A DNA stretch of 64,000 nt from the NCBI GenBank assembly GCA_963755915.1, contig CAVWLP010000002.1, positions 1,824,001 through 1,888,000 on the forward strand, written 5' to 3'. The position numbers and the translations under genes were made by a program. Position 1 is the first letter of the stretch; each line of letters begins with the position of its first letter. The notes beneath the pieces are model-generated. The model searched no databases, was not told the DNA's origin, and saw only the letters and a program-made list of their open reading frames with translations. The DNA is from an uncultured Phycisphaerales bacterium (GTDB lineage: Bacteria > Planctomycetota > Phycisphaerae > Tepidisphaerales > Tepidisphaeraceae). Below, one piece after another: positions 12,766-62,102 of this stretch.

Positions 12766-13671
12766 ATGATCGACCCCTCTATTAGCGGCCACGACCCTGT
12801 TCTCCTCGCGGAGGTGCTGGAATATCTCGATCCGTCCGCCGGGCAAACCGTGGTTGATTGCACGCTTGGGCGCGGGGGACATGCACTGGCCGTCGGGCAG
12901 CGTCTTGGAGCCGGGGGGCTGCTCATCGGACTGGATGCGGACCCGCGGAATCTGGAATTCGCGGCGGGGCGGCTGGAGTCGCTCCAGTGCCGCCGGCGGC
13001 TTTTTCATGCGAACTTCTCGCGGGTTTCCACGGTTTTGTCGGAAGCCGGGAATCCGCCGGTGAACGCCATCCTTGCGGACCTGGGTATTAGTACCAATCA
13101 GCTCTTCGACGCCCATTACGGATTGAGCTTCGACCGGCCCATGCCGCTGGACATGCGGCTGGACCCCGAACTGCCTGAAAATGCGGCAGACCTTGTGAAT
13201 CGATTGCCCGAAGAATCGCTGGCCAACGTCCTATATGATCTGGCCCAAGAGCGTTATTCCCGCCAAATTGCCAGAAAGATTGTCGAAAGCCGGCGAAGTC
13301 GTCCGATTAAAGATACGGAAGCACTTGCCGAGCTGGTTCGCTCGGCAATTCCGCGTCGGGGCAAAGGCCCGTCGCGGATTGATCCGGCCACGCGAACGTT
13401 TCTCACGCTTCGCATGGCGGTCAACCGGGAAATGGAGAATCTGGCCGAGCTGCTGAAAGAGGCGCCGGCGGGATTGGTTTCCGGTGGACGGCTGGCCGTG
13501 ATCAGCTTTCAGTCGATGGAAGATCGAGCGGTGAAACTGGCGTTTCGGTCGTTGGAGCAGACCGGGGTCTTTAAGGTGATCACCTCGAAGCCCCTCACAC
13601 CCACCTCCGAAGAAATCGCCCGAAACCCCCGATCGCGGTCGGCAAAGATGCGTGTGATTGAGAAATCATGA
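12766..13671 (+). CDS. rsmH: 16S rRNA m4C1402 methyltransferase RsmH (MraW)
   Basis: HDPVLLAEV, VDCTLGRGGHA, DLGIS, PLDMRLD and NPRSRSAKMR motifs. Confidence 0.97.
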   Translation: MIDPSISGHDPVLLAEVLEYLDPSAGQTVVDCTLGRGGHALAVGQRLGAGGLLIGLDADPRNLEFAAGRLESLQCRRRLFHANFSRVSTVLSEAGNPPVNAILADLGISTNQLFDAHYGLSFDRPMPLDMRLDPELPENAADLVNRLPEESLANVLYDLAQERYSRQIARKIVESRRSRPIKDTEALAELVRSAIPRRGKGPSRIDPATRTFLTLRMAVNREMENLAELLKEAPAGLVSGGRLAVISFQSMEDRAVKLAFRSLEQTGVFKVITSKPLTPTSEEIARNPRSRSAKMRVIEKS

Positions 13672-13672
13672 A

Positions 13673-13774
13673 GTTGCGAGTGACGAGTTGCGAGTTGCGA
13701 GTAAATGCATTTGCGTTTCACTCGCAACCCGCAACTCGCGGCTCGACTGAGCTCGCCGAAGTCAACTCGCAACT
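13673..13774. repeat. Inverted pair of heptamer tandem arrays (GAGTTGC)n / (GCAACTC)n, interrupted by 23-bp element C at 13740-13762
   Basis: Removing GGCTCGACTGAGCTCGCCGAAGT plus one duplicated C restores GCAACTCGCAACTCGCAACT. Confidence 0.85.
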
Positions 13775-13791
13775 GCCTTTGGGAGGCAGAC

Positions 13792-54780: not shown

Positions 54781-56676
54781 TTAATTGGAACCGTGAGCGC
54801 CCAAGCTGGGCACGGGGGGTTGGGGAGGGGGTGATTCGTCGGTTTCGCGGATCAAAAGGGGCTGGGCCATCTGATGAATTTGGCGCAGGGCTTCGTCAAA
54901 CTGCGTCGCAAGCTCGGCGTTGGCTTCGCTGGTCAGGCGATGGCGAAGCTTGTCGGTAATTCCCTGCACATGCCAAAGGCCGATGACCAGGCGAATCTCC
55001 GGTAGCTTGGCGCGGACGCGTTTGCAGACGTATCGGGCGTGGGCGGCGGCGCCGGGGGGCATGGCGGAGATGACGACGACGTCGACCTTTTCGCTCGAAA
55101 GAACCTCCACGCGCTCGCTGGCGAGGGAACTGGCCGAGATTGGGGTGACGGTGTATCCCAGCCCCTGGAGGAGGCTGGCGAGCATCAGGCCGGCGATTTC
55201 CTCGACGCGGTTGTGTGCGGGGAGCAGGGCGATTCGAATCGTGGCATCCCGGGGCACTTTTACGGTGTCGTCCTTCTTTTCCGCGACCTGGGCGGATTTT
55301 TCGTCGGGCTGACCAGCATCTTCAATCTCATCGCTCATGACCTGCAGGATGAAATCCAAACGGCCCTCGTCGAGAATTCCGGCGCGGAAGTCGCGCTGGG
55401 CCATGACCAGGGCGGGGAGCATGATCTGGCTGAAAAGCTGCTCGCGATTACGGTCTTTCTCGAATTCATCGAGCAGGTCCTCGGCTTCCTCGGCGTCTTC
55501 GGCAAGCAGGCGCTGGTAATAGCGCTCGGGAGGACTGAGCACCGGCTGGTCGCCCAGCAGAATATCGAGAAAGGCGAGCTGGGGGACGTATTTTCCGGCG
55601 ACGGCGAGAAGGACGGTGAGCGGCGTAGAGAGGAGCAAGCCGATGCCGCCCCAGAGCCAGGTCCAGAAGACAGCGGCGACGAGAATCGCCAGCGGGGAGA
55701 GGCCGGTTCGGGCGCCGAAGAGGAGAGGCTCGACGGCGTTTGCGGCGACAATCTCGAGTAGGGCGAAGAGTCCGAGGGTGAGAAATGGGCGGGCGGTGTA
55801 ATACCCCTCCGGCAACACGGCGGAGAGGATGATGGGAAAAAGTGCGCCGATCCAGATTCCAACGTAGGGAACGAATCGGAGCAGGGCACAGAGCAAACCC
55901 CACAGTGGGGCGTTGGGGATGTGAATGAGATAGAGGCCGAGTGCGACCAGAATTCCGTAGATGCCGTTGACGGCGGATTGTGCGGCGAGATAGCGGCTGA
56001 TGCGGGTGGCGGCTTCGTCGAGGGCGCGGGTAGTGACGGTCAGTTGTCCGTGGCCGACCAGGCGGATCACGCGGTCGCGGATGTCTTCGCGCTGGATGAG
56101 CATGAAGACCACAAAGACGATGACAACCAGGAACTGGGCCATGGGCGCGATGATGTCCAGGGCGGAGCGGACGGTTCCCAGAGCTGATGGCGTTTCCGGC
56201 GACGAGGTAATTTCGACGGCGACGGGATTTTCTTTGGTTCCGCGGTTTGCCCAGGTTTGCCCAACGCCGTCCGGCTGGGTGGTAACCACTTCCTTGGCCA
56301 TGGTGGCGATTTCACTCGACGCCTTGGCCCAGACGCCGCCTCCCAGATAGTGATGGACGCCGGCGATCTTGTGCTCGATGTCGGCCTGATAATCACCGAG
56401 TTTAACGGCCAGTTCGGTGGCCTGATCTGAAATGACCCATCCGATGCCGCCGAGGAGGGCGAAGGAAAGGGCGACGACGATGAGGACGCTGGGGGTGCGG
56501 CGGAGGCGGAGGCGTTCGAGACGATGGACCAGGGGGGCGAGGAGAAAGGTCAGGAGGAGGGCGACGGCGAGGGGAATGAGGACGGCCCGGGCGAAATAGA
56601 GACCGGCGACCACGCCGCAGATGGCCGCCAGGGCGAGAAATCGCCCTGACTTGCTGCTTGCGGATGGTTCGCCCAT
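54781..56676 (-). CDS. AI-2E family transporter with C-terminal cytoplasmic Rossmann-like domain
   Basis: LIPLAVALLLTFLLAP, LRFVPYVG and AVFWTWLWGGIGLLLSTPLT. Confidence 0.92.
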   Translation of the reverse strand: MGEPSASSKSGRFLALAAICGVVAGLYFARAVLIPLAVALLLTFLLAPLVHRLERLRLRRTPSVLIVVALSFALLGGIGWVISDQATELAVKLGDYQADIEHKIAGVHHYLGGGVWAKASSEIATMAKEVVTTQPDGVGQTWANRGTKENPVAVEITSSPETPSALGTVRSALDIIAPMAQFLVVIVFVVFMLIQREDIRDRVIRLVGHGQLTVTTRALDEAATRISRYLAAQSAVNGIYGILVALGLYLIHIPNAPLWGLLCALLRFVPYVGIWIGALFPIILSAVLPEGYYTARPFLTLGLFALLEIVAANAVEPLLFGARTGLSPLAILVAAVFWTWLWGGIGLLLSTPLTVLLAVAGKYVPQLAFLDILLGDQPVLSPPERYYQRLLAEDAEEAEDLLDEFEKDRNREQLFSQIMLPALVMAQRDFRAGILDEGRLDFILQVMSDEIEDAGQPDEKSAQVAEKKDDTVKVPRDATIRIALLPAHNRVEEIAGLMLASLLQGLGYTVTPISASSLASERVEVLSSEKVDVVVISAMPPGAAAHARYVCKRVRAKLPEIRLVIGLWHVQGITDKLRHRLTSEANAELATQFDEALRQIHQMAQPLLIRETDESPPPQPPVPSLGAHGSN

Positions 56677-56796
56677 GGAGGCGATTGTAAGCGACCTTAC
56701 TCATTGGCGGAGCGGGGAAATTATCCGGACCGCGTTGGGGGCTGATAATCCATACCCGCAACGAAAATCAGGGCGAGATGGCCGATAGAGTTAGTC

Positions 56797-57498
56797 ATGA
56801 GATTGGGTAGGTGCGGGATCAGGCGTTGGTTGGATAGGCCCCAGGATGGCGGCTCGACTGTCTTCGACCCTGAGGCTCAGACCCGAAGGGAGCTCGCCGA
56901 AGTCCATCCTGGGGCTTTGGGCGCGGTGACTGGGGTTGTTCTGACTCTTGTCGTGCTGCTGGGTGTGGGGGAGGCTTCGGGGCAGGCCACGCGGCCCGAT
57001 TCGGATGCTTCGCCGACGTGGGCGAAGGCCGTGAGCTCTATTGCGGCGGCGGCGGCGGGGCACGATGCGCAAACATTGCAGTCGCTGATCGATCCAAATT
57101 GCCAGATCAAGCGTTTCAACGCCGAGGGGGCGGGCGATGTTTCCGACTTCACGGATTTCGCGACCGGGACGTCAATCATCGGGGATCACGCGTATGTATT
57201 TCCGGATGTCAGCGCGATCGCCGACATCGCGCGCGATATCGATTTATCGCCGCTGGTGAGCGACTACCAGCGGAAGGAGCTTTCGATGGGGGACGCGAAT
57301 CAGAAGTCGGGGGTGATGCGGTGGATCGCGCAGTCGCTGGATGCGCAGGATGGGGAGCTGATCGGGGTGATCGTTTTGTGGGATTCGCGTGCGGATACCG
57401 ACGACATGCACCGACCGAATTTTATTTTGATCAAGGCGGAGAAATCGGATGGGGGATTCAAGCCTACGCAGATTGTTTATGGGGATCCGCTGCAGTAA
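56797..57498 (+). CDS. Hypothetical exported protein whose 5' region contains nested palindromic insertions
   Basis: Hydrophobic signal segment and QATRP motif; start may lie upstream or downstream of the repeat nest. Confidence 0.65.
   Translation: MRLGRCGIRRWLDRPQDGGSTVFDPEAQTRRELAEVHPGALGAVTGVVLTLVVLLGVGEASGQATRPDSDASPTWAKAVSSIAAAAAGHDAQTLQSLIDPNCQIKRFNAEGAGDVSDFTDFATGTSIIGDHAYVFPDVSAIADIARDIDLSPLVSDYQRKELSMGDANQKSGVMRWIAQSLDAQDGELIGVIVLWDSRADTDDMHRPNFILIKAEKSDGGFKPTQIVYGDPLQ
56838..56915. repeat. Triple-nested palindromic elements D > C > B
   Basis: Removing B (56861-56889 plus 1 bp) gives the exact element C seen at 13740; removing C gives the perfect 24-bp palindrome GCCCCAGGATGGCCATCCTGGGGC. 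Confidence 0.92.
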
Positions 57499-60469: not shown

Positions 60470-60590
60470 GTTTATGGAAATCGGAAATTGGCAATGTCGC
60501 GAAGGGGCAGCCGTTATAGTGCAATCGCATATGGATTGAAAAATGCCGAAGGCCCCCCACCCTAACCCTCCCCTCTTCGAGCCTGAGCCT

Positions 60591-61947
60591 TGTATAGACC
60601 GGAGACATGGGTAACAGGTCTCTCAGGACATAGGTAACACATTTCATTTTGGGTATCACGGCCAAAAAGGAGGCCGATGCCCTGGAAGGAATGTGTGACG
60701 AACGAAGTTCGCGGTGAGTTTGTGCAACTGGCTATGCGGGCGGATGCTAACCTGGCAGCGCTTTGCCGACGGTTCGGAATCAGCCGGCGCTGTGGTTACA
60801 AATGGCTCCGGCGTTATCGTGCCGAGGGTCAGGCGGGATTGTTGGATCGTTCGCGTCGCCCGCACGCCAGTCCCGCACAGGTGGACGGCCGGATGAGGCA
60901 GGCGGTTGTGAGGCTTCGCATGAAGCATCCGGTGTGGGGAGGCCGCAAGCTGAGGAAGCTGCTGGAGAATCAGGGTCGGGATCCGGCGACGTTGCCTGCG
61001 GTGAGCACGATCGGGCGTATTTTATTTCGCGGTGGACTGATCGATCCGGCTCGATCATCACAGCACCGGGCGTTTCAACGCTTTGAGCACGATCAGCCCA
61101 ATGACCTTTGGCAGATGGACTTCAAGGGACATTTCGCCTTGGGCAACGGGCGGCGTTGCCATGCCCTGACGGTGCTGGATGATCACTCACGTTATTGTCT
61201 TTGCCTGCAGGCATGCACGGGTGAGACCGAGCAGGATGTGAAGCCCGCATTGGTGCGACTATTCCAGCAAAATGGCCTGCCGCTGAGGATTTTGTGCGAC
61301 AACGGTCCTCCGTGGGGCACCTGGCATGGGCAGGAACGGCAAGGGTACACGCGTTTGGGTCTGTGGCTGTTGCGTCAGAACGTGGGAGTATGTCACGGCC
61401 GTCCGCGTCACCCGCAAACACAAGGCAAGGACGAGCGTCTGCATCGAACGCTTAAAGAGGAGCTGCTGATGCGTCAGCCGCTGGCCAATATGGCTGATGC
61501 CCAGAAGCATTTCGACCCCTGGCGTGAGCAGTACAATTGCGTGCGTCCCCACGAGGCGTTGGGTCTGGCGGTTCCGGCCAGCCGCTACGGCAAAAGTCCT
61601 CGGGCTTACGAGCCTGATCTCAAGGTGGAGTACCTTGCCGGTGACCAGGTGAGAAAGGTGGATCGCAATGGGCTGTTCGCCTTCCGGAGCATCGAGTGGC
61701 GTTTGGGCATTGCCTTTGCGGGCGAGACGGTAGCGATTCGGTTGACCGCGGCGGATGGAATAATGGCCGTGGTCTATGCCAGACAAACAGTGGCGGGCGT
61801 CAATCTGAAGGAAATCAGCCGAGGCCGTCGGCGAGTTGTGTGCTGTGCCGAGCCTCCGGTCGCTGCGCTCCCTCCGGCTCGGCACAGCACACAAAAAGTG
61901 TTACCTATGTCCTGAGAGAGGTGTTATCTATGTCCTGGAACAAAACA
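60591..61947 (+). mobile_element. IS481-family insertion sequence
   Basis: TGT...ACA ends, doubled GACATAGGTAACA-type subterminal repeats in inverted orientation, 5-bp target duplication AGCCT (60586-60590, 61948-61952). Confidence 0.93.
60677..61915 (+). CDS. IS481-family transposase (intact)
   Basis: MPWKE...LCRRFGISRRCGYKW, WQMDFKG, LDDHSRY, CDNG and PQTQGKDERLH. Confidence 0.95.
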   Translation: MPWKECVTNEVRGEFVQLAMRADANLAALCRRFGISRRCGYKWLRRYRAEGQAGLLDRSRRPHASPAQVDGRMRQAVVRLRMKHPVWGGRKLRKLLENQGRDPATLPAVSTIGRILFRGGLIDPARSSQHRAFQRFEHDQPNDLWQMDFKGHFALGNGRRCHALTVLDDHSRYCLCLQACTGETEQDVKPALVRLFQQNGLPLRILCDNGPPWGTWHGQERQGYTRLGLWLLRQNVGVCHGRPRHPQTQGKDERLHRTLKEELLMRQPLANMADAQKHFDPWREQYNCVRPHEALGLAVPASRYGKSPRAYEPDLKVEYLAGDQVRKVDRNGLFAFRSIEWRLGIAFAGETVAIRLTAADGIMAVVYARQTVAGVNLKEISRGRRRVVCCAEPPVAALPPARHSTQKVLPMS

Positions 61948-62102
61948 AGCCTCAGAGCCGAAGGCCGGAGTACCAGGGGAGGGGTGATAGGGGCAGATGC
62001 GATTGCCCTGGCAGCCGTTATGGCGCGTGGCGGCAAAAGCTTGAATCTTCCGATGGAAATTCGATTGGTTTATTGAACCGTTGAACTTAGAATTCGGCTC
62101 CC

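Follow-up and report, generated by a model that had tools for sequence, protein, structure and literature searches.

How three short palindromes come to lie exactly one inside another, within 78 bases and close to the start of a gene, is the question raised by positions 56838-56915 of the stretch of DNA analysed here (the window, 64,000 nt; G000:C2:1824001-1888000). The window belongs to a metagenome-assembled genome (MAG) of an uncultured Phycisphaerales bacterium, G000, a 6.63-Mb assembly of three contigs with 59% GC. An earlier note, made from the letters alone, had read the tract as an ultra-small non-autonomous mobile family that enters hairpins or repeats. That reading is supported by an empty site in a sister genome, 14 insertion or deletion (indel) events between species, recursive nesting, and a constant one-base repeat at the flanks of the units. 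We consider it likely that the two units nested here, B (29 nt) and C (23 nt), are tiny modules mobilized in trans, which insert at fixed sites and into one another; this judgement concerns the units and not the enzyme. The observation itself is real, and tiny mobile nesting modules are well supported; the part of the note that concerned the reading frame is wrong at this locus and occasionally true elsewhere.

A three-layer nest and its empty counterpart

The tract consists of three layers of hairpin modules and parses exactly as GCCCCAGGATGG/C/GGCTCGACTG/B/G/AGCTCGCCGAAGT/CCATCCTGGGGC, with unit B inside unit C and unit C at the centre of a host palindrome, D. These features, and a solo C unit elsewhere in the window, are as follows:

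56838-56849, + strand: left arm of host palindrome D, GCCCCAGGATGG (direct parse; sister site uninterrupted)
56850, then 56851-56860, + strand: flank base C (one-base repeat), then left half of the C unit, GGCTCGACTG (direct parse)
56861-56889, + strand: B unit, a 29-nt imperfect palindrome, TCTTCG-ACC-CTGAG-G-CTCAG-ACC-CGAAGG (genome-wide matches, flanks, fold)
56890, then 56891-56903, + strand: repeated G, then right half of the C unit, AGCTCGCCGAAGT (direct parse)
56904-56915, + strand: right arm of host palindrome D, CCATCCTGGGGC (direct parse; sister site uninterrupted)
13739-13763, + strand: solo C unit with C..C flanks, inside a hairpin of heptamer (GTTGCGA) repeats (identical C at 13740-13762; clean 24-bp gap in the sister genome)

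Matches to B, C, and D in the window were judged against 100 shuffles each, with 0 expected by chance: the nesting of B in C in D is far beyond chance, and the uninterrupted, identical C claimed for 13740-13762 was recovered. At up to 3 mismatches, B has one match in the window and uninterrupted D has none. As single-stranded DNA, an 82-nt tract is predicted to fold into one coaxial nested hairpin (-24.6 kcal/mol, z = -4.1), in which B would form a hairpin with a 3x3 internal loop. An Rfam search of 56500-57100 gave only a tfoR match at chance level (E = 0.52), and a BLAST search of the 56-nt composite against named plasmids and phages gave no match.

In the sister genome at this locus (L001, = G041, G001), where the orthologue of the downstream protein is 91% identical, the site is an uninterrupted palindrome, GGCCCCAGGAGGGCCATCCTGGGGCTTT, which is D with one mismatch. 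Alignment of the orthologous sites has one exact 54-column gap, equal to C plus B; the sister genome thus carries the empty-site allele.

Unit families, hosts, and flanks in G000

Both units form families with copies throughout the genome. There are 32 B-type loci at up to 5 mismatches and 30 at up to 3, in two variants: B itself (..CG-ACC-CTGAG-G-CTCAG-ACC-CG..) and B', with AGC in both arms and a central C. Of the 32, 18 lie in a repeat called E (ccctc[ct]cc|ccggagtacc...); C units hold 9, heptamer arrays 4, and a degenerate context the last one, so that none is in unique sequence. C has 68 loci at up to 2 mismatches. When left and right halves of C are paired (84 pairs), 59 are uninterrupted, 8 are split at one shared central G by a B or B' fill of exactly 30 bp, and 4 are a 2-bp variant; the remaining pairs include deeper nests. 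At C2:700998 the order is C[B[C']], and at C2:4193734 (reverse-strand numbering) it is B[C'[B]], where C' is a 24-nt variant of C; at C3:222272, B' lies within B'. The C[B] composite forms a family in itself: about 10 copies occur in G000, it is found 100% identical at other loci of genomes G001 and G011, and its hosts are of several types.

Recurrent hosts of C are the palindrome H1 (CCCACGGCGGCGCCGTGGG), the hairpin H2, heptamer arrays, repetitive extragenic palindromic sequences (REPs) of the GTAG type, of which genuine examples (CCCCGTGTAGCCGCC..) exist in G000, and D-type palindromes, of which there are 14 (28 strand-hits) at up to 4 mismatches. Empty copies of the host repeats far outnumber filled ones (palindromic hosts being counted on both strands), and the orientation of C is fixed relative to asymmetric hosts.

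The flanks follow a strict rule. With B oriented by its central G, they are G..G at 30 of 30 loci (up to 3 mismatches), and for C they are C..C at 66 of 68, a one-base repeat in both families that the earlier note had read as a duplication. Empty E repeats have a run of five C (95 copies) or three C (68 copies), and filled ones have exactly one extra C in 13 of 13 cases. The net lengths are then 30 for B (29 + 1), 24 for C (23 + 1), and 25 for C'; the note's statement that all are multiples of three holds for B and C but not for C'.

Positions 2-3 and 16-17 of C can form Watson-Crick pairs in 57 of 62 copies, in four combinations (GC/GC in 27, GT/AC in 24, AC/GT in 5, AT/AT in 1), a covariation from which a conserved 3-bp stem in C follows. 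The entry point of B in C is midway along the 12-nt loop; that of C' and B' in B is C18, 3 nt off centre; and C enters H1 3 nt off centre, D at the centre, and H2 at the junction of loop and stem. Fixed insertion sites are thus seen in C, B, E, D, H1, H2, and REPs, and the feature that they share is a C (or G) at a hairpin apex or a few bases from one, with no sign of a longer target motif.

A set of 24-bp tandem arrays (172 units) was also considered as possible C insertions and ruled out: each of the 30 arrays is part of a single larger repeat, present in about 30 copies whose flanks are identical, and they are therefore taken to be a variable-number tandem repeat in an element resembling an insertion sequence (IS). 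This repeat (e.g., G000:C2:1631812-1632051) has an array of 1-12 units, each 19/24 identical to C plus its flank base.

Presence and absence between species

Differences between orthologous sites were tabulated by aligning 1.2 Mb of contig C4 of G041 to G000 and retaining single-copy syntenic segments. A first block gave 45 segments (304,699 columns, 132 indels of at least 12 bp) and a second set 82 segments (576,391 columns, 238 indels of at least 12 bp). Across this unique synteny (~0.88 Mb), 370 indels were compared; 13 correspond to exactly one unit or composite, and a fourteenth lies at the edge of a high-scoring segment pair. The 14 clean presence/absence events, with gaps of 24, 25, 30, or 54 bp, run in both directions:

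C, in G000 only: 2 events (window 13739-13762; C2:2230685, in H1)
B in a heptamer array, in G000 only: 1 event (C2:1940056)
B' in resident E repeats, in G000 only: 3 events
54-bp C[B] at the 56838-56915 locus, in G000 only: 1 event
B within a C that is left empty in G041, in G000 only: 1 event (C2:1776492)
C', in G041 only: 3 events
C, in G041 only: 2 events (one in a GTAG REP, one in the hairpin H9)
B' in E, in G041 only: 1 event

The one-base repeat is present at all 14 empty/filled pairs. From these pairs it follows that, in both lineages, units go singly into hosts that were already in place, and stepwise nesting is directly seen at loci elsewhere in the genome.

Distribution across genomes and viral contigs

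With at most 1 mismatch, C is found in 10 of 12 other genomes of the genus and in 4 of 12 other genera of the family, and in none of 16 genomes from other families of the class; exact copies occur in 7 of 400 other Planctomycetota, at 1-2 copies each. B is present in 13 of 41 genomes of a set of relatives (G000 included) and in 27 of 120 genomes of a family sample, at up to 110 copies, with both variants letter-perfect. One unpublished genome (G014) is counted in these tallies as a genome without units.

Exact C also occurs on 15 predicted viral contigs in IMG/VR, of 39-71% GC, and B on 6 (loci L091-L113 for the two together). The flank rule is kept there, with C..C around 17 of 18 C units and all 6 B units conforming. 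The units on these contigs often lie within other modules of CTGAG..CGAAG type, including C inside C.

Relation to genes and reading frames

The 233-aa open reading frame (ORF) at 56797-57498, beginning with the ATG at 56797, is open through the nest, as the earlier note had observed, but this openness is mechanical: its 5' part is not conserved as coding sequence. A 2-bp indel in the sister genome, between the palindrome and the conserved protein, puts the upstream ATG out of frame, and the ATG that opens the conserved hydrophobic N-terminus there is one codon downstream of the base aligned to a GTG at 56926. The downstream gene probably reads:

56926-57498, + strand: probable true coding sequence (predicted GTG start; hydrophobic N-terminus; orthologue 91% identical)

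The product is probably a secreted or membrane protein, with no family assigned. The upstream gene (54781-56676) is divergent. The claim that the nest keeps the reading frame thus fails at 56838-56915: because the sister indel breaks the frame and the sister ATG lies downstream, the nest lies in the 5' leader or in the promoter region between the divergent genes, with ~10 nt separating it from the start codon.

Between the two genes, an intergenic stretch in 56700-56800 (GGAGCGGGGAAATTATCCGGACCGCGTTGGGGGC.GATAATCCATA), for which Rfam gave no match, is near-invariant between G000 and G041 amid diverged surroundings; it may be a leader or operator.

For the genome as a whole, an open frame with at least 50 codons on each side spans 7 of 30 B loci and 23 of 68 C loci, versus 768 of 1000 random sites, and most of the unit-spanning frames are upstream extensions of real genes. 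The suggestion that units are tolerated in coding DNA is verified in one case, probable in a second, and otherwise qualified by the rarity of such cases, units being mostly extragenic. The verified case is carB (G000:C2:1317380-1317520, L058; 1245 aa, with CPSase_L domains), which contains an in-frame nest of E and B'. The nest lengthens a loop by 25 residues (..RPFSEFSPSPGTPAFGSEAQARRGEGRGEGRQN..), and the length of this loop varies in relatives as well. The insert is absent from all 11 relatives compared in frame, three of which have other, shorter extra residues there; two further relatives, whose extracted sequence lost frame, were left out of this comparison. The probable second case is a GT41 glycosyltransferase gene, in which the Pfam match is split around a C unit.

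An insertion sequence in the centres of B-type units

The earlier note had also placed copies of B at 60574 and 61964. The B-type sequence is real, but it is a single B' unit, which differs from B at 3 positions and is interrupted by an IS481-family element of 1.36 kb. Positions 60552-61984 form a four-layer nest, with this element in B' in an E repeat:

60552-60573, + strand: left part of an E-type repeat (ccccaccctaaccctcccc), host of B' (sequence comparison)
60574-60589, + strand: left half of B', up to the IS junction (sequence comparison)
60590-61949, + strand: IS481-family insertion sequence in the exact centre of B' (412-aa transposase at 60677-61915)
61950-61964, + strand: right half of B' (sequence comparison)
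61965-61984, + strand: right part of the E-type host repeat (ccggagtaccaggggagggg) (sequence comparison)

The single DDE transposase scores 260.3 bits against NF033577 (cut-off 224), which places it in the IS481 family. The genome contains five copies of the element, 100% identical and all in exact B-type centres (in the window and at C2:740520, C2:1049268, C2:3969067, and C3:917959). The junctions read CTGAG-S-C|IS|G-S'-CTCAG, with an inverted rather than direct repeat at S in 4 of the 5. The element is absent from 24 of 25 relatives searched, the other having one fragment (G008). It is a recent user of B and not its parent; the possibility that the B halves are its true ends was ruled out by this restriction of the IS to G000 and the G008 fragment, as against the wide distribution of B.

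A proposed mechanism of insertion

Our preferred account treats B, C, and C' as short DNA hairpins without genes, mobilized in trans. Each would enter at a single fixed nucleotide, which afterwards borders it on either side (a G in the case of B, a C in that of C), and because the entry nucleotide ends up on both sides the net gain would be 30, 24, or 25 bp. Preferred targets would lie at or near the apex of palindromes or repeats: the centre of the C loop, position 18 of B, and the E repeat, and further the GTAG-type REPs, heptamer arrays, and palindrome D. Units would pile up inside one another because their targets are other palindromes and repeats. We infer that the hairpin (single-stranded) form is what is recognised. 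At 56838-56915, C carrying B would have entered the centre of a resident 24-bp palindrome just upstream of the start codon, either as one 54-bp composite or in two successive steps.

Several observations weigh against this account. A one-base target duplication predicts the same pattern as a one-base terminal redundancy combined with a target-base preference. Polarity, that is, gain versus precise loss, rests on parsimony because no unit has been caught moving; as for an outgroup, orthologous DNA was found only in the sister genome (G001/G041) among 12 genomes of the genus, and a search for related loci gave one relative. The orientation of C shows no bias relative to GC skew, which is itself weak. 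Logan contigs from four soil runs match the flanks of the nest at 100%, yet none spans 56831-56962. Finally, all 32 B loci lie in other repeats, so that mobile hosts could have carried some of the copies along with them (hitch-hiking).

Candidate enzymes

One candidate for the mobilizing enzyme is a small GIY-YIG nuclease. Its gene in G000, of 101 aa, at G000:C1:84953-85255, is directly 3' of tRNA-Ala (region G000:C1:84753-85255, L031 753-1255), and orthologues at L033-L041 also directly follow a tRNA gene, with the tRNA differing by genome; it looks like a tRNA-targeting selfish gene. In 8 genomes there is a conserved leader between the tRNA and GIY-YIG genes: TTCGACTCGCTGCGCTCGCTCATGGCAGGCC, right after the CCA end of the tRNA, then a spacer, GAGTCGAATGCCCTGAG..TCGAAGGGC, and the ATG. 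The TCGA..CTGAG..CGAAGG grammar of B and C is also present in this leader, and CTGAG-N5-CGAAG modules, the pattern of the 3' part of C, stand beside GIY-YIG genes at 4 of 10 loci. Among the 120 family genomes, 6 have both at least 5 copies of B and a GIY-YIG orthologue, 4 have only the B copies, 8 only the gene, and 102 neither (odds ratio 19, Fisher p = 1.3e-4, related genomes not being independent samples).

Other results speak against this nuclease. Four of the 10 genomes with at least 5 copies of B have no orthologue, and 8 with an orthologue have fewer than 5 copies; C copy number follows the gene poorly; no B or C was found within 1.5 kb of the GIY-YIG gene at 10 loci; and no GIY-YIG homologue was found in 195 kb of viral loci carrying units. 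A tRNA-linked GIY-YIG nuclease acting as a structure-specific nickase is our leading candidate for moving the units but only a lead, and a tentative one. Full-text literature searches found nothing comparable described for Phycisphaerae or linked to bacterial GIY-YIG genes.

More doubtful still is a broader proposal, that the units are a new minimal class of transposable element: a 23-29-nt hairpin that a small, structure-specific GIY-YIG nuclease, encoded beside tRNA genes, would insert in trans at hairpin apexes with a one-base duplication. Such elements would nest in one another, travel from lineage to lineage on phages, and be kin to the CTGAG..CGAAG modules that adjoin nuclease genes of this kind in other phyla.

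Neither DUF559 genes nor other GIY-YIG genes in G000 have B or C beside them. One DUF559 (Vsr-like) nuclease gene (G000:C2:1930200-1930760) has E-type repeats on both sides.

Alternative explanations

The most serious rival to independent mobility of the units is hitch-hiking, which we regard as a possibility, if an unlikely one. Real insertions would have been few (B into one C and one E, C into one copy of each host), with the composites then multiplied by mobile REP-like hosts or by gene conversion, and the nest at 56838-56915 would be a single landing of a 54-bp composite. This would suit the C[B] copies, both the ~10 in G000 and those identical at other loci in G001 and G011, as well as the fixed orientation of C in asymmetric hosts, the placement of 32 of 32 B loci in repeats, the presence of GTAG-type REPs among the hosts, and that of multi-copy RAYT-like genes. 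It accounts poorly for the single entries into resident hosts: B into C, B' into four copies of E, C into resident H1, REP, and H9 hairpins, and C and B into separate heptamer arrays. Gene conversion, moreover, would have to rely on homology arms of just ~10-20 bp.

As a second alternative, REP-associated tyrosine transposases (RAYTs, of the HUH Y1 type) might move B and C as unusual REPs, via single-stranded hairpins. B is a 29-nt imperfect palindrome with an internal mismatch, in high copy and mostly extragenic, and the covariation in C suggests a hairpin form. There are also two RAYT-like genes in G000 (C3:1125058-1125801 and C3:576251-576835), both below the NCBIfam cut-off. The palindromes beside these genes are others, however: one gene has GGGGACGCAGCTAG..CTAGCTGCGTCCCC hairpins on either side (~15-20 copies genome-wide), and the other is preceded by a GTTTAGCCGCGACC palindrome (~50 copies). 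No RAYT or IS bounded by B or C ends was found, B and C lack a GTAG or CGTC tag, and there is no strand bias along the GC skew. Nor is there co-distribution: homologues of the two genes occur in 29 and 20 of 41 genomes, most members of the family having several copies, and their presence does not follow that of B or C. No homologue was found in G011, which has 7 B and 16 C, and many genomes with homologues lack both units. RAYT-type transposases are less likely movers than the GIY-YIG nuclease, and this explanation as a whole is improbable.

A third alternative, that the units are immobile parts of ancestral compound hairpins and that species differ by precise slippage deletions between one-base or short repeats at hairpin bases, is very improbable. 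Palindromes are prone to deletion in general, and the polarity of the 14 events is unrooted; but deletion cannot put the same 23- or 29-nt string into at least 6 unrelated host contexts or explain the copies in carB, in recursive nests, and on viral contigs whose GC content ranges over 39-71%. Recurrent exact deletions, besides, would need more than a one-base repeat to drive them.

An artefact of assembly or polishing in a repeat-rich long-read MAG can be practically dismissed, for although G000 is a MAG (81% complete, 8% contamination) and public contigs do not span the nest, units and composites with the same flank rule turn up in at least 15 genomes that were assembled independently, from short reads as well as from long ones.

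Comparison with known repeat classes

The earlier note knew of no described class with these properties and named Rickettsia palindromic elements (RPEs) as the closest analogue. The first statement was too strong, since the small dispersed repeats (SDRs) of Nostocaceae are comparable, and SDRs are also closer than RPEs, which are several times larger. SDR4-6, of heterocyst-forming cyanobacteria, resemble B and C in being ~21-27 nt long, dispersed, without coding capacity, and able to form hairpins, and in entering precisely at a fixed position of another short palindrome or repeat. SDRs reportedly also nest and are associated with heptamer repeats. According to one report, their units are 21-27 nt and are known only from Nostocaceae (PMC5861425), a size range that includes C and C', with B just outside it; another describes SDR5 inserted between nucleotides 3 and 4 of HIP1 (PMC4390886). 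The phylum differs and the sequences probably do as well, and with a Phycisphaerales host SDRs can be at most an analogue. Features of B and C not known to us for SDRs are a 29/30-nt member, the strict one-base flank repeat, recursion to 3-4 layers, an IS that targets the centre of a unit, and occurrence on viral contigs.

REPs, with the related bacterial interspersed mosaic elements and REPINs, are similar in being short imperfect palindromes in tens to hundreds of copies, mostly extragenic and used as IS targets (PMC3116915 and PMC3733652). REPs are described in the latter as having a conserved unpaired GTAG or CGTC tag at one end (PMC3733652). Neither motif, nor its complement, is present in the B and C strings. 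B and C also differ in that no RAYT gene is flanked by them or co-distributed with them, in that the indel unit is single rather than a doublet, and in their entry into palindromes with a one-base repeat. They agree with this class in size, palindromy, copy number, and extragenic position, and are set apart from it by the tag and the RAYT association.

RPEs are palindromic elements of ~100-150 bp that lie in frame in genes. The in-frame nest of E and B' in carB is similar, but B and C are 4-6 times smaller, mostly extragenic, and self-nesting; their size rules out membership, and in-frame genic copies are exceptional.

Miniature inverted-repeat transposable elements (MITEs) are given as 70-300 bp long, with terminal inverted repeats of 15-30 bp, and moved by a parent IS (PMC3733652). 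B, with its two 14-nt inverted arms around one base, is like a MITE cut down to its ends, and the flank repeat of B and C resembles a target duplication. At 23-29 nt the units nevertheless fall outside this class, and there is no parent IS with the same ends: the IS481-family element has its own ends and binding repeats and is missing from other B-rich genomes.

That element is itself comparable to the REP-targeting insertion sequences, such as IS1397, that are cited in PMC3116915, in that its 5 copies all occupy the centre of a small palindromic repeat and no other site. It belongs to another IS family, has another target, and has inverted junction bases in 4 of 5 copies.

The usual view is that mobile DNA requires a minimum of two ends for protein binding, which amount to tens to hundreds of bases. 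B and C rank with the smallest mobile DNA elements so far seen. With a length of 23-29 nt, precise movement, stacking, letters unchanged across genera and on viral contigs, and the ability to lie in frame in the essential gene carB, such units would push down the lower size limit of mobile DNA. To our knowledge, cyanobacterial SDRs are the only published parallel, with no mechanism put forward since 2008, and were believed to occur in a single family. With a second, independent system the question of their mechanism could become testable: empty/filled pairs are many, the flank rule is strict, paired bases covary, and there is a concrete candidate enzyme. In practical terms, the units create spurious ORFs (as at 56797-57498), break short-read assemblies, lengthen leader hairpins next to start codons, and serve as landing pads for insertion sequences.

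The heptamer repeats that host some of the units were noted in their own right. Tandem repeats of GTTGCGA, AAACCAG, GATTGCC, and AAATTCG occur at 13660-13790 in the window and at many other loci; they form inverted blocks, flank hairpins, and are reminiscent of the short tandemly repeated repetitive (STRR) sequences of cyanobacteria.

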